Part shown: positions 2,985 through 13,328 of the stretch, one piece after another | Numbering within the stretch: the stretch's first letter is position 1 | Layout of the letters: each line of letters begins with the position of its first letter | Assembly (NCBI GenBank): GCA_951406725.2 | Contig: OX597829.1 | Span: 58,280,001 to 58,344,000 of the forward strand | Source: Octopus vulgaris | Lineage: Eukaryota | Reading direction: 5' to 3' | Length of the DNA stretch: 64,000 bases | Made by a program: the position numbers and the translations under genes | The notes under the pieces: model-generated | What the model saw: the letters and a program-made list of their open reading frames with translations, nothing else | What the model was told of the DNA's origin: nothing | Database searches by the model: none

Positions 2985-3860
2985 ATCAAAAGAAGACAGG
3001 TGTATGCACAATAGGCAGGTGTATTAGTTTGACGCTCAGGAAAGTGAAAAAGTCTTTCGTGTTTCGAGCCCACGCTCTTCATCAGAAAAGAACAGGAGAA
3101 AATAAACAGAGAGGGAATAAAATGATGAAGAGAGAGGTGGGTAGGAGTGAAGAGAGGAAGTAGGTGTGAGTTGAGAGGAGGGGAGTCAGATGAAGAGGGG
3201 AGTTGAGCCCATATGGTACAAAGGAGTGAAGAGAGAAGATTAATTCTTGTTCACGGCGAAGGCGCGAGTCCGGATGGCCCCTGTGCAAAGACAATCCGAA
3301 CTCAGACGGGTGTTGTAATGAATGACTGGTAGAGCGGGACTGGGGTGTTGTTGTCGAGTCTAATGTCTCGGAGGTGCTCTGCAAACCGGTCAGCGAAGTA
3401 GCGTCTCGTTTGACTGATGTACAGAGAAGGACAGAAAGAGCAGGAGATACAGTAAGAGACGTTTCTAGACTTGCATGTAAAGAAGTTAGTAATATGATAG
3501 GCACGATGATGGGTGCCTGTGAGGATGGTGATGTTGGAGAGGTAGGGGCAAGTGCGACAGCGTACGTGGAAGCAGGGGAACGGGCCAGATTGGGAGATGG
3601 GGTTAGGGAAGAAACTGTGGACCAGAAGGTCACGTAGGTTGTTGGCTCGTTTGTAGGAGTGGAGGGGTGAAATGGGTAACGGCAGGGCAAGTGTGGGGAG
3701 AGAGAGCAGAGGCACGGTCCACGGAAGTGCTCTGGCAAGGACGGTGTGGATGTTGATGAGGAGATATCCACAGAGGATGAAGTGGCAAACCATGAGTTGA
3801 GACTGAGTCTCAGAGTCATGAATGTCACTGCAGAGCCTGCGCAGACCGAGGAATTGGGAG
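2985..3860 (-). mobile_element. Penelope-like element 3' end (Neptune-type GIY-YIG with Cys-rich linker) plus pseudo-LTR
   Basis: ORF 3302-3793: YKRANNLRDLLVHS, PCFHVRCRTCPY, NVSYCISC..C.SLYISQT.R..RF.EH. HHR-like motif downstream at 3053-3091. Confidence 0.85.
3053..3091 (-). ncRNA. Minimal type I hammerhead-like motif in PLE pLTR (degenerate cleavage site)
   Basis: Minus strand: TCTTTT CTGATGA A GAGC-GTGG-GCTC GAAAC ACG AAAGA. Confidence 0.55.
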
Positions 3861-7816: not shown

Positions 7817-9889
7817 CTCTTCTTTCTTTCTTTTTTTTTTACTTTGTTTTGGTGGCCGGGTGTTGAAGTAGTAATTATCTTTTTTTTTTTTTGGTGGTGG
7901 TGGTAGGGAGATTTCTACTGAGAAGATCAAAGGACCTGTTAACGTTGTCGCCATCTTAGAGAGAAGGCAAAGGCTAAAATGCGGATCAAGTCAAACGAAT
8001 GACGAAAATTAAGGCAAGTCTTAATAAAGTTTTGCTTTTCAACAGCAATAGTAATAAAAAATATTCTACACATCTGTAGTTACATCTGTTCATAAATATG
8101 GGCACGTATTTTGCAGACGTCGGAGTCAGTAAGTTTCAAATTGGAATATTTCCGTTCTATCGGGGATTTTTCTGATTTTACTTTTTTTCACGGTGCCCTT
8201 GGAAGTGCTGTGGACTATCTTTTTAGCAAAACAATTTGCGAAAATGATTTTTTATTTCACCCTACCCGGACTTTTGGAATTTCTCCGTTTTGACGGGAAT
8301 ATTTTCACGCTCCTTCCATTCCCGGCCGATTTTGTTAGCACTCGCTCGATGCTTCCCCCCATCCCACCTCTGTGGACAGATTTTGCGGCCACTACTCTTA
8401 AAAATGATGGGAGAGAAACCTTTTCGTTAAAAACAATTTTCACTCCTATCTTTATCAATTTCTTAATGATACATAGCATTTTTTCTTGTTAAACCTTTTT
8501 CCATTACTCAAATGGGTTTGTGGGGAGAAAGATATTCTTTTCGTCGAGTTGTAAACATTAACCTTCTTTTCTTGCACAAGGCCCGAAATTTTGGGGGAGA
8601 GGGCACCCAGTACGCAACTAGTACTTAATTTATTGACCCCGAAAGGATGAAAGGCAAAGTTTACATGGCGGAGACGTAAACGGACTCCAATGAGGGTAAC
8701 CTGCTTGAAGGCCAAGGCCGTAGAATCGGGTGGGATCTTTATTTATTTATTTTTTTGCAAAATTGAAATTTTACAAACAGTTTTCTTTTTTCAGAACCCT
8801 AATTAGCCATGTGCGCCCCTAAAACTAACCCTAACCCTAGGGAGTGTGCATAGTAAAAAAATCTGATTAGAAGCAATCAAGAATGTGCAAACGATATTGT
8901 CGGTCTCCTCGTATCATTATCGGAAAAAGTAAATTACCGCTCTTCATATCGAGTGTCCGTTTTCCGTGTTTTATTTTTAAGTATAAAATATTTTAAAATG
9001 GATGAATCTTTCTAATTTTTTTGCATACATCATTTATTTTGTATATATTTTCCATTTTCACAACTTTTTGTTTTTAATTGCATTTCATTTTATTGGAGCT
9101 CCAAAAACTAACTTGCGATTTTCTTTCTCTTACTATTGCCGTTGAAAAGCCAAAAATTATTGAAATTTAACTTTTCCGGCATTCAATCGTTTTGAGCACG
9201 TGTTGTCAACTGTAAACACATGAAATATTATCACTAATAATGGGGCTTTTTCGACGTCGATTTCGTTTTCTTCTTAGGATACACAAATGAAGCAGGTAAG
9301 AACGAATCCTAGCCGCATGCACATACATGCACAAAAATGCATATATAACTTGCACTTTATAAATATGCAAGACATCTCTTAAGTTTAAAATGCGACCTAC
9401 ATTCCACATACAGAAAAGAGAAGTATGTCACACACGGAAACTATCGAAAGAATCTTGACAAGCCTGAAACGCCAAACGATTGAATGTCGCGGGGAAATCT
9501 AACTTCCGGTTTCAATATTAAATTCTAAGCGTTTCTGATTTTTACTCCGAAGTGAATAGTGTTTCATTTGCAGGAAACTGAACATTTTTTAGTGACATAT
9601 CTTTTAATTCGTACTCCAAAGTGAACTAAAAAAAAACTTGCTGGAAGATTTTTTTAGTTCAATATGGATATTCCTAGGCTATCAGTTACTTCTAGATTAA
9701 GCCCAGAAAACATCATAGATTCGTGAAGTATATTTGCCACCTAAATGTGGCTAACCCTTATGGGTTGATGCCACTGTAGCTTGTAGCCCCAAGAAGACAT
9801 CTCCTCCAGCTGGCTATTGACACACTTATTGTGTCCTATCAGTATTTGCAAAGGGAAGTCATCGTTCCCATCTCCAGCCTGACATGATA

Positions 9890-9934
9890 CACACAGACCC
9901 GAGTTTCTGAATATTGACCCGTCATCAGCGTATG
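9890..9934 (-). ncRNA. Type I hammerhead motif
   Basis: Minus strand: CATACG CTGATGA CGGGT-CAAT-ATTCA GAAA CTCGGG TC|TGTGTG. Confidence 0.75.
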
Positions 9935-10313
9935 ACAACCACTGGTTGGCGATGTGAAGTGGTTCCCAATGCAAATATATATATATATATATATATTATA
10001 TCCTTTTTCCTGTGACTTTTCGTTACTGATCTTGAAAAGGTGTAAACAAGCAATAATACATCTCTGAACGAGGTATAGACATTAACTGCACGACAACGTA
10101 AAGTATAATAGCCGTCTCAATATGGCTAACCACTAAGGGTGGGTGTTACTGTAGCTTTTAGCCCCAGGAGAACATCTTCTCCAGCTGGCTTTTGACACGA
10201 GATATAAACTGTAGCTGCACGACGAGATTTATTATTGCTTGTTTCCACTTTTTCGAGATCAGTGACTTTTCGTCACTGGAAAAAGTATATATATATATAT
10301 ATTTGCATTGAGA

Positions 10314-10358
10314 ACTACGCTGATGATGGGTCAATATTCAGAAACTCGGGTCCGTGTG
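10314..10358 (+). ncRNA. Type I hammerhead motif
   Basis: ACTACG CTGATGA TGGGT-CAAT-ATTCA GAAA CTCGGG TC|CGTGTG; predicted cleavage after 10352. Confidence 0.75.
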
Positions 10359-11370
10359 TATTACGGCAGGGTGGAGATAGGAAAGACGACTTCCCTTTGC
10401 AAATACTGATAGGGCACAGTAAGTGTGCCAATGACCAGCTGGAGGAGATGTCTTCCTGGGACTACAAGCTCCAGTAGCATCAACCCTTAGAGGTTAACCA
10501 CATTTAAGTGGCAAATATACTTCACGATGTCGTGCAGCTACTGTGTATACCTCGTTCAGAGATTTATTATTACATTGTAGATTATTTGAAAGAGGAAGGA
10601 TTACTTTTTAAACAGAAAAGATGTACCCGTAATACATTTATGAGTTTCATAAAATCACCGAGGAGTAATGACAGATATTCATGGAAATGTCCATCTTGTC
10701 GAAAAAAGAAATCAATCAGGAGTAACACGTTTATGGAAAGATCAAAATTATCGCCTAACAATTATTTTTCATATCGTTTATCACTTTGCCAGTGGAACCC
10801 CAGTCACTGCATGTATGAGTCGAGTTGGTGTATCACGTGTGACAGCTATTCAATGGTACGCATATTGTAGAGAAATTTGTAGCAGCAAGTTACTCAAAGA
10901 CAGAACAAAATTAGGAGGTGATGGTCACGCGGTACAGATTGAGGAATCACCGAGTTTAATAGAAAGTTTAATCTAGGTAAGATTAAAGAGAAAATTTGGA
11001 TTGTTGGTTTCTTTTGTTTCAGTATGCACCGGACAAAAGTGCTGAAACCTTAGAAACAATTATACAAGAAAATGTTTTACCTGGCAGTACACTGTATACT
11101 GATAAATGGGATAGCTATAAGAATCTTTCATCTTTAGGTTATAACAGCCAACCAGAGTCGTGTTAAACAAAAAATTTAAAACATTTATGGTTCAGAAGGA
11201 GAACTGAGATGGGACCACATAGATGAAGGCATTTTCAGGGAATATTATAAGTTCAATGCATCAACATTTATACAAAACTCCCAAACTTCCCTGAAGCACA
11301 TTGCAGGAATTTATCTGCAGGTATGTAATGTTATATACATTCACATTATATCGTTTCATACTATAATATG

Positions 11371-13328
11371 GGCGGAGGTGAAGATCATGGACCGTGCCCG
11401 CTTTGGGATTTGTTTTTTACGGGAACACACTATATCGGGCGATCTTTCGTTTTGACTCGGAAAATGAGTTTCCGTGACCACTTGTCTTGTCAACTGTCAG
11501 TTGACATATCGAAATGGGAAGAGAAAGCCAATGGATCGTGCGTGTTTGTTCCTCTGTGTGTTATATTTACATTCCACAACCCATAAAAATAGAACAAGCA
11601 CTTACACACACACACACAAACAACAAGCACACACACCCACACAACCCATTACCTTTCAATACGTCAACTGACGGTTGGTCACGGAAACTAACGAATTCAG
11701 TGTTTACCTCTTTCGAGTCAAAACGAAAGAATGTCCTATGTCGATGGCGGAGATTCCGAATCTACAAAAAAAAAAAAGCATTTCAAAATTTTAATCCCCC
11801 ACTCCCATTTCTTAGATTAAAAAAAAAATTTCTTTTGGCAAAAAACGTAGAAAAATACGGAGATTATGATTCTGAAAAAATAATTTGTAAAGTTTCAATT
11901 TTTCAAAGACCCCCCCCCCCTTCTTCCTTATGACATGAAGTGAAATTAAAGTATTTTCTCTAATGTTTCCTGACGAACATAACAACCGAACATGTTGTGG
12001 TCAGGGTCTTTTGGAATTAAAAGAGGTACGAAAAAATTAAATTTTTTGCACACACACAACAAAATGACATTAATTTTTTTTTTTTTCCTTTTTTTGGAAA
12101 TTCGTATTTAGAAATTTGATACTCGGTTTGGCTGTTGTTTCTAGCTTGTCAGATTTCCGGTTGGGGCGTACTTAGAAATCGAAAGTTTTTGAAATCCCCA
12201 AAATACGTTTTCATTCTCTGGCAAAGAAAAAAAGGGGTTGGGTGGGTGAAATTTCACTTTCTGTCAAAGGGTGCAGGGGAGGTACTTCTTTTTCTTTTTT
12301 TGAAAAATTGATACATTACCATTATGAAGTAATTTATGGGAAAGTTTTGGTGGGGGAGAGGACTTTCGGAAAATTCCCAAGATCCGAATTTTTCCTCGTT
12401 ATATTCCGAAATCACATCCAACTTTCTACAGATACCCTAACGTAATACTTCTACCCTACGTAGTGTTTATTTCTACCCACTTTCAATAATTTTTAATGTT
12501 TTGGCTTCAATTTTGTTTCATTTTATCTTCCAATTATTTTTTTACCCTTCTGTCGTTATTCTCATTCACTCGTTATTACTTTCTCTGTATATATATATAT
12601 ATATTGTAAATATACATACATCTATATACAGACACGTTATATTTTTACAAACGCACTTCACTGAAGTTACAAAAATTAGTGGAAACGATATCTTGACAAA
12701 AAACCATGTTCGTTTTTGTGGGAAATAAGTCAAAGAGTATTAAAACAAAATATCTTTTGCTAAAATTACTATATATATATATAGATCCCAGGATATATAT
12801 AAAATTTCATTGGAAAAAACACATTTTCCTAAAAGTTACAAGGGAAAAACTCGGATCTTATGAATTTTCCGAGTTACTCACCCCACCCCCTTGGAAAAGA
12901 TTTTACCCACAAATTTCTTCATAATCATAATGTATGCCGTTTGAAAGATATTTATATAAAATTCCGTTGAAAAAAACCCTATTCTCCTAAAAGTTATGAT
13001 GGAAAAACTTGGATCTTGTGAATTTTCCGAGGTTCCCTCCTCCACCCTCCTGTTGCTTTGCGCGCAGTTTTTTTTTTCCCTATAGATTTTTAACACCCGT
13101 TGCACGATTTTATTTCTGATTTTCGTTTCTGGGTCAAGTTGTAAACATTAACAAATTTTTTTCTTCAAAAGTGAAAATTTAAGAAATTGGGGAGGTGAAT
13201 TTAAATTTTCAAAGGCAGATTTTTTGCCGATTCAGATTCTCCGCCCTCCATATAGGACGTTCCTGTCGAAAAAAAAACAACAACAACAAAAAATAAAACG
13301 AATTGGGGTGCGGTCCTTGATCTCCGCC
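11371..13328. mobile_element. Putative non-autonomous TIR element bounded by GGCGGAG..GATCA(T/A)GGACCG(T/C)RCCC inverted ends
   Basis: 11371-11399 vs reverse complement of 13305-13328; internal modules shared with 1-420; no TSD seen. Confidence 0.35.

Follow-up and report, generated by a model that had tools for sequence, protein, structure and literature searches.

The window, the whole 64,000-nucleotide stretch of Octopus vulgaris DNA analysed here (assembly GCA_951406725.2, contig OX597829.1, positions 58,280,001 to 58,344,000 of the forward strand), contains a block of two arms on opposite strands, each with a hammerhead motif, set between the copies of a 12-bp target duplication inside the remains of a transposase gene. 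Positions within the repeat unit are counted on the plus arm, with P1 at 10224, a period of 335 and P348 at 10571, and the subfamilies of the repeat are called A, B and C. The features, in window coordinates, are these:

9664-9721, plus strand: 5' piece of a dead Merlin/ISXO2-type transposase, its first 19 codons (tblastn to residues 4-23 of L037; DNA match to L033)
9710-9721, plus strand: left copy of the 12-bp target-site duplication, a 10/12 match to the right copy, single in the relative L033
9722-9965, minus strand: outer part of the inverted arm, subfamily A, with its 3' end at P304 and no tail
9890-9934, minus strand: type I hammerhead, minus copy; helix I 6 bp, helix II 4 bp including two G.U pairs, helix III 2 bp; predicted cut after 9896
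9966-10010, minus strand: zone of the in-register switch from A to non-A, containing a (TA)n run (from alignment and identity comparisons)
10011-10198, minus strand: inner part of the inverted arm, of a different subfamily, P201-P335 and P1 to about P55, with a B-like body and a C-like tail and head
10197-10223, minus strand (read 10223 to 10197): 27-nt centre piece P306-332, joined to P201 via a 2-nt overlap and missed by the original prediction
10224-10571, plus strand: direct arm of subfamily A spanning P1-P348 (1.04 units); a 29-nt deletion private to this copy precedes the ribozyme
10316-10356, plus strand: type I hammerhead, plus copy; helix I cut to 4 bp by this deletion, helix II with two G.U pairs; predicted cut after 10352
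10528-10571, plus strand: 44-nt tail that ends the plus arm and is missing from the outer end of the minus arm
10572-10583, plus strand: right copy of the target-site duplication, matching the left copy at 10 of 12 positions
10574-11325, plus strand: remainder of the dead transposase; the reading changes frame four times, which leaves five pieces free of stops

The block interrupts a Merlin-type transposase, as had been predicted from the sequence: the flanks align next to each other on the intact ISXO2-type open reading frame L037, the left one covering residues 4-23 and the right one residue 23 onward. The L037 frame matches PF12762 (ISXO2-like transposase) at 3e-12. The class of the host is assigned indirectly, as the window pieces align to the L037 and L039 frames, both matching PF12762, and three of these pieces searched alone gave no PF12762 match. 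Merlin/ISXO2-type DNA transposons carry terminal inverted repeats and make a target-site duplication of their own; no terminal inverted repeats were found between the left and right flanks of this decayed host copy. An uninterrupted relative of the host, L033, shares 76-83% DNA identity with it and carries the target motif once, so that the check proposed for the duplication, comparison with an uninterrupted Merlin copy, yields an empty site. Each window copy of the duplication has one private difference from the last 11 letters of the L033 motif, and a 10/12 flank match has a probability of 0.0002 against random 12-mer pairs drawn from 8000-13000. The host cannot date the insertion, because the search for close uninterrupted Merlin copies gave just three partial DNA relatives. 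Just past the transposase end, 11434-11739 holds nested short inverted repeats of MITE-like appearance (11434-11462 with 11711-11739, and 11491-11514 with 11654-11677). Elsewhere in the genome, L039-L054 include several intact ISXO2/Merlin-type frames of 270-320 codons, and L050 has a long inverted duplication.

Both hammerhead cores foreseen on opposite strands are intact, with CTGATGA at 10320-10326 (plus) and 9928-9922 (minus), GAAA, and GTC ending at 10352 (plus) and 9896 (minus), and both agree with the canonical core CUGANGA, GAAA, UH. The predicted palindromic stem III, ACTCGGGT, is self-complementary only if G.U pairs are counted. Across 28 copies of the family all three helices are kept, with 93% of cells paired against 6-54% in slid controls, and 7 of the 14 hammerhead pairs show two-sided change, a covariation that stems from three related subfamilies and thus from few independent events. 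Rfam gives no hammerhead match in the block at gathering threshold or at E<=10, so the motif call depends on sequence and covariation; the weak Rfam matches were put down to chance. A more stable hammerhead fold than that of the block's two copies is formed by 50/59 and 43/59 other copies, and both ribozymes of the block are predicted to be weakened, by the two G.U pairs in helix II and, in the plus copy, by the short helix I.

The block is an old member of an abundant family of non-coding repeats that bear a hammerhead. The unit measures about 356-376 nt, and two family searches gave 3984 and 4908 first-look candidate relatives in the 2.8-Gb genome, 40 candidates being scored in each. Exact-motif searches returned 66 matches for the A core and 600 for the B motif, and none for the controls. 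Two sets of loci describe the layout. Among 57 distinct loci selected by rank, the block included, the head-to-head form is seen at 21, the direct form at 36 and the tail-to-tail form at none, a set ranked for full-length matches and hence biased in its end positions; among 26 distinct subfamily B loci sampled by position (the first 30 of the 600 B-motif matches), 16 are head-to-head, and 13 of these 16 have the tail on one arm only. Outer 3' ends fall at two preferred places 44 nt apart, P299-308 (31 ends) and P344-352 (35 ends), which account for 66 of 78. A (TA)n run adjoins an end at 35/57 loci against 16/228 background windows, and perfect non-microsatellite duplications of 9-15 nt occur at L011, L076, L145, L146 and L171; slack in the boundaries and the unit's own TA run inflate both counts somewhat, and the target-site searches tolerated 6-10 nt of slack, so that some duplications are chance. 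Non-majority alleles are shared at 30% between the arms of one locus and at 12% between loci. Of 75 loci, 10 have one ribozyme on each strand (the block included), 56 have one, 8 have none detected and 1, at L086 1282-2011, has two on the same strand, 357 nt apart. Dropped before counting were L055 and L085, which are this locus again, and L060, L083, L102, L147, L162, L166 and L168, each the same place as or a duplicate of another locus; the A reference set excludes L007, L010, L030 and L076. L101 and L102, which lie 5.6 kb apart and are 98.8% alike over 3.1 kb, both carry a subfamily B copy; being a segmental duplication, they were rejected as a pair of pLTRs.

Against this family background the anatomy of the block can be read more closely. 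The plus arm does start and end with the same 13-mer, as the original prediction of a 335-nt monomer had it, but the 335-nt length reflects the private deletion, absent in 13/13 other aligned rows, together with a shorter TA run, the family unit being longer. The 13-nt repeat was considered as a target-site duplication of the plus arm and rejected, as it is unit sequence that also occurs inside the minus arm. The minus arm, from 10198 to 9721, aligns to the plus-arm unit as P201-P335 followed by P1-P304 at 78% identity with gaps; the tandem of about 1.3 copies is thereby borne out as an alignment, whereas its two copies belong to different subfamilies. By tblastn the block has no reverse transcriptase or GIY-YIG match and so is not an autonomous Penelope-like element (PLE), and two open reading frames of 84 and 89 codons that span the ribozymes match none of four PLE ORFs. 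The outer junctions are both bridged by contigs of two other sequencing runs, with 2 and 4 differences, possibly from the same source as the assembly.

The head-to-head block likely entered the broken Merlin-type transposase gene in a single event, through the action of a Penelope-like reverse transcriptase and endonuclease. Both arms lie within a single target-site duplication and terminate, on their outer sides, at the two ends preferred by the family. With the empty site of L033, this upholds the earlier view that the block is a non-autonomous hammerhead retro-element whose insertion was most likely a single event that left a target-site duplication; the idea of a special bidirectional cassette, by comparison, fails, head-to-head being the commonest layout of the family among position-sampled loci as well as a published layout of Penelope-like elements. 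The A-type parts of the arms lie each 4-9% from the column majority, where the family median is 5-6.5%, and since each diverges from the majority like other copies, the 10-12% by which they differ from each other is ordinary decay. They share four non-majority alleles, which 312 of 1547 unrelated pairs equal; this is not significant, and because unrelated pairs often share as many, the sequence is no proof of a single template.

In the proposed course of events, the enzyme would cleave the two strands of an AT-rich target with a 12-nt stagger, and unit RNA would be copied into cDNA with each free end as primer, starting at P348 (the end of the tail) from one and at the inner start P304 from the other. 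During synthesis of the left arm the enzyme would likely have passed, without losing register, from an A-type to a B/C-type template close to the (TA)n run, with a later conversion as the alternative. A second jump, from P201 to P332, would have followed, and the head-to-head arrangement would result from the subsequent joining of the far ends of the two cDNAs. That each arm was primed from one target strand is suggested by the anatomy; PMC3846280, in its available part, proposes self-priming on an antisense template instead. In the source elements the ribozyme would have been under selection, likely cutting as a dimer in tandem transcripts. It is the layout that points to a Penelope enzyme, since no autonomous partner was found in flank scans or in three regions with spaced motif copies. 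The genome does contain intact ORFs that combine RT and GIY-YIG. The unit sequence had no match in 30 GIY-YIG loci (of at least 150 listed, from 6136 candidates) or, among the matches listed, in 8 longer regions, and no Penelope ORF adjoins the unit at 75 plus 33 loci. Many of the RT plus GIY-YIG ORFs have 781 codons (for example L136 1245-3590 and L137 1164-3506), some pairs being 98-99% alike, which suggests a recently active PLE family in the genome; a pattern search found no canonical hammerhead near these 781-codon ORFs among the matches listed. The PLE copy L140 contains a perfect inverted duplication of 766 bp, and within the window a remnant of a Penelope-type GIY-YIG endonuclease lies at 3287-3658 on the minus strand (tblastn E 4e-8 to the L140 ORF, one stop).

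What sets the block apart is its left arm, a chimera of two subfamilies about 20% apart and the block's only unusual feature. A and B are separated by about that distance in P201-348, with C copies intermediate; several of these C copies (L088, L095-L098, L104) are A/B mosaics at the diagnostic columns, which hints at recombination among source elements. Subfamily A makes up the right arm and the outer part of the left one; this outer part is 88-94% identical to A copies and 73-81% to B copies. At the diagnostic columns the inner left-arm copy is B at 13/16, the outer copy of the same stretch A at 16/16. The inner piece falls inside a B clade of 19 with support 0.96 and is 92-94% identical to its best genomic matches compared with about 80% to A. 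The non-A sequence stays in register to at least P48, and the change to A falls in the 9966-10010 interval that holds the (TA)n run; the non-A piece thus extends past the tail end, and a nested canonical B insertion was rejected on this ground. A literature search found no two-subfamily chimeric PLE arms, a result that does not establish their absence. The origin of the chimera preferred here, though with somewhat less than an even chance, is that one Penelope-type integration drew on RNAs of two subfamilies by multi-template double priming, the enzyme passing from one to the other in register close to the (TA)n run.

Long inverted repeats and (TA)n runs break easily, and the chimera may instead have arisen after the insertion, a substantial but lesser possibility: an all-A Penelope-type insertion would later have had its left arm repaired or converted from a B/C copy, so that the two accounts differ only in where the chimera comes from. 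The converted piece would be in register at one end, near the (TA)n run, and joined through 2 nt at the other. Taken without the foreign piece, the left arm is exactly one A unit, from P306 to P304, and the centre piece P306-332, A-like at the sole informative site, would run into the A part. Among the other multi-segment loci painted, A and B are nowhere divided as sharply, which further indicates that mixing at integration is at most rare. The foreign piece, however, matches its nearest relatives at 92-94%, a distance similar to that between the A arms and their own closest copies, leaving no age gap, and template jumps have been proposed for Penelope-like elements in the seen part of PMC3846280.

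Two independent back-to-back insertions, the second targeting the first, are very unlikely. They would fit the 10-12% difference between the arms where both are of A type, a finding in PMC11167929, as far as its text was available, that PLE enzymes can nick their own pLTR, and the few neighbouring independent copies known, which lie tail-to-tail at L030 and L175. Yet the one target-site duplication surrounds both arms and neither arm has a separate one, the 13-nt repeat around the plus arm being unit sequence; the divergence of the arms is ordinary family decay, and the head-to-head pattern with and without tail recurs in 13 of 16 inverted loci.

The block was originally thought to have been copied from one circular RNA replicon and to be now a two-way self-cleaving cassette, which is very unlikely. 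Each arm is longer than one unit and runs through the unit join as well as the cut site, which calls for a circular template or a multimer left uncut; animal non-LTR retrozymes of 170-400 nt form circles (PMC7229834, part of the text), and a circular template has been proposed for PLE tandems (PMC4209133, likewise in part). But because the overlapping copies of the minus arm belong to different subfamilies (16/16 A against 13/16 B), the left-arm tandem is not one circle copied past its start. With one ribozyme on each strand, moreover, no unit-length RNA can be excised from the block, and two ribozymes on one strand are seen at only 1 of the 75 loci; the block itself is predicted to yield no circular RNA. 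The ribozyme would also be masked on read-through, because the head-to-head geometry puts the antisense arm first in the transcript: folding predicts pairing of each ribozyme to the opposite arm at 0.97 in both directions, also for transcripts that end 60 nt past the ribozyme, although such models disregard hammerhead tertiary contacts and protein help. Hammerheads with a short helix III, the type present here, need a dimer according to the accessible text of PMC4209133, and in cofolding the hammerhead dimer is not the lowest-energy form. Self-cleavage in either direction is accordingly not to be expected of this copy, likely inert as a ribozyme by these models, and most other copies fold into the more stable hammerhead noted above. 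Nor is cleavage required for insertion of the PLE PAc in vitro (PMC11167929, in the part available). Circles made by source elements elsewhere would remain compatible with all of this.

The long hairpin expected on transcription is supported by folding, the whole block reaching a z of -23.7, so that read-through, if any, would yield a hairpin RNA of about 850 nt, a long double-stranded RNA and possible source of small RNAs. Low-depth contigs from two runs guessed to be RNA, possibly with DNA included, cover 10183-10275 (1 difference) and 10520-10700 (3 differences). Of 24 runs, none of which is recorded as RNA, four were examined, and their contigs, which show no read starts or ends, are silent on cleavage and circles. 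The junction-read test put forward earlier is not diagnostic, because the unit-to-unit join is present in genomic DNA.

An assembly artefact or simple local inverted duplication is scarcely credible: inverted repeats are indeed hard for assemblies (PMC8557442, portion seen), but the arms differ by 10-20% plus indels, contigs of two other runs bridge both outer junctions (with a source possibly shared with the assembly), and an empty site exists in L033.

The locus is, then, a non-autonomous hammerhead insertion of known Penelope-type layout, a decayed repeat in a decayed transposon. Twin-primed 5' inversions of LINE-1 arise when both target ends prime cDNA, the inversion lying within one target-site duplication. 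The proposed model resembles them in that both target ends would prime cDNA; unlike LINE-1, both arms copy overlapping sequence from two fixed starts, so that an inverted repeat results rather than an inversion of distinct parts. The nearest likeness is to endonuclease-positive Penelope-like insertions, which have in common with the block a partial tandem with an inverted head-to-head copy, a tail at one end, a target-site duplication, AT-rich or microsatellite targets and a hammerhead in the repeat. Such insertions are described, in the sources as far as seen, with partial tandems, a neighbouring inverted copy truncated at its 5' end and a tail of 30-40 bp on one end (PMC8557442), with an 8-10-bp duplication and mostly head-to-head arms (PMC3846280), and with a purified protein that cuts both strands at AT-rich targets and has two internal starts of reverse transcription that define the tail (PMC11167929). 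The tail of 44-47 nt here compares with these 30-40, and the duplication of 12 with the 8-10 of rotifer examples. Unlike them, the block has no RT/endonuclease ORF, and its unit is unmatched to an autonomous element here.

Schistosoma mansoni has pairs of opposite-strand hammerheads 100-700 bp apart, read as truncated PLEs in the part of PMC4209133 available; those of the block are likewise on opposite strands, about 420 bp apart, but have canonical motifs where the Schistosoma ones are minimal with a long helix II. Animal non-LTR retrozymes, as described in the available parts of PMC7229834 and bioRxiv 10.64898/2026.07.22.740005, the latter arguing that they are non-autonomous PLE derivatives, share with the family a non-coding unit of 150-450 nt, head-to-tail joins, a type I hammerhead with helices I of 6 bp, II of 4 bp and III of 2 bp with a self-complementary loop, a target-site duplication of more than 4 bp and the presence of PLEs in the genome. 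The block differs from an active non-LTR retrozyme in lacking two consecutive ribozyme-bearing units, so that the definition fails at this locus, and the family, known here from genomic sequence, differs from animal retrozymes in that dispersed inverted inserts predominate over arrays in the loci seen. Through insertion anatomy the family ties canonical retrozyme-type hammerhead units to Penelope-type integration, in agreement with the same 2026 preprint, whose argument, in the portion seen, proceeds from vertebrate distribution and phylogeny. The fixed tail/no-tail asymmetry and the chimeric arm bear on how the inverted PLE structure is formed, and if the multi-template reading is true, the hundreds of head-to-head inserts with and without tail constitute a natural data set on the origin of such structures.
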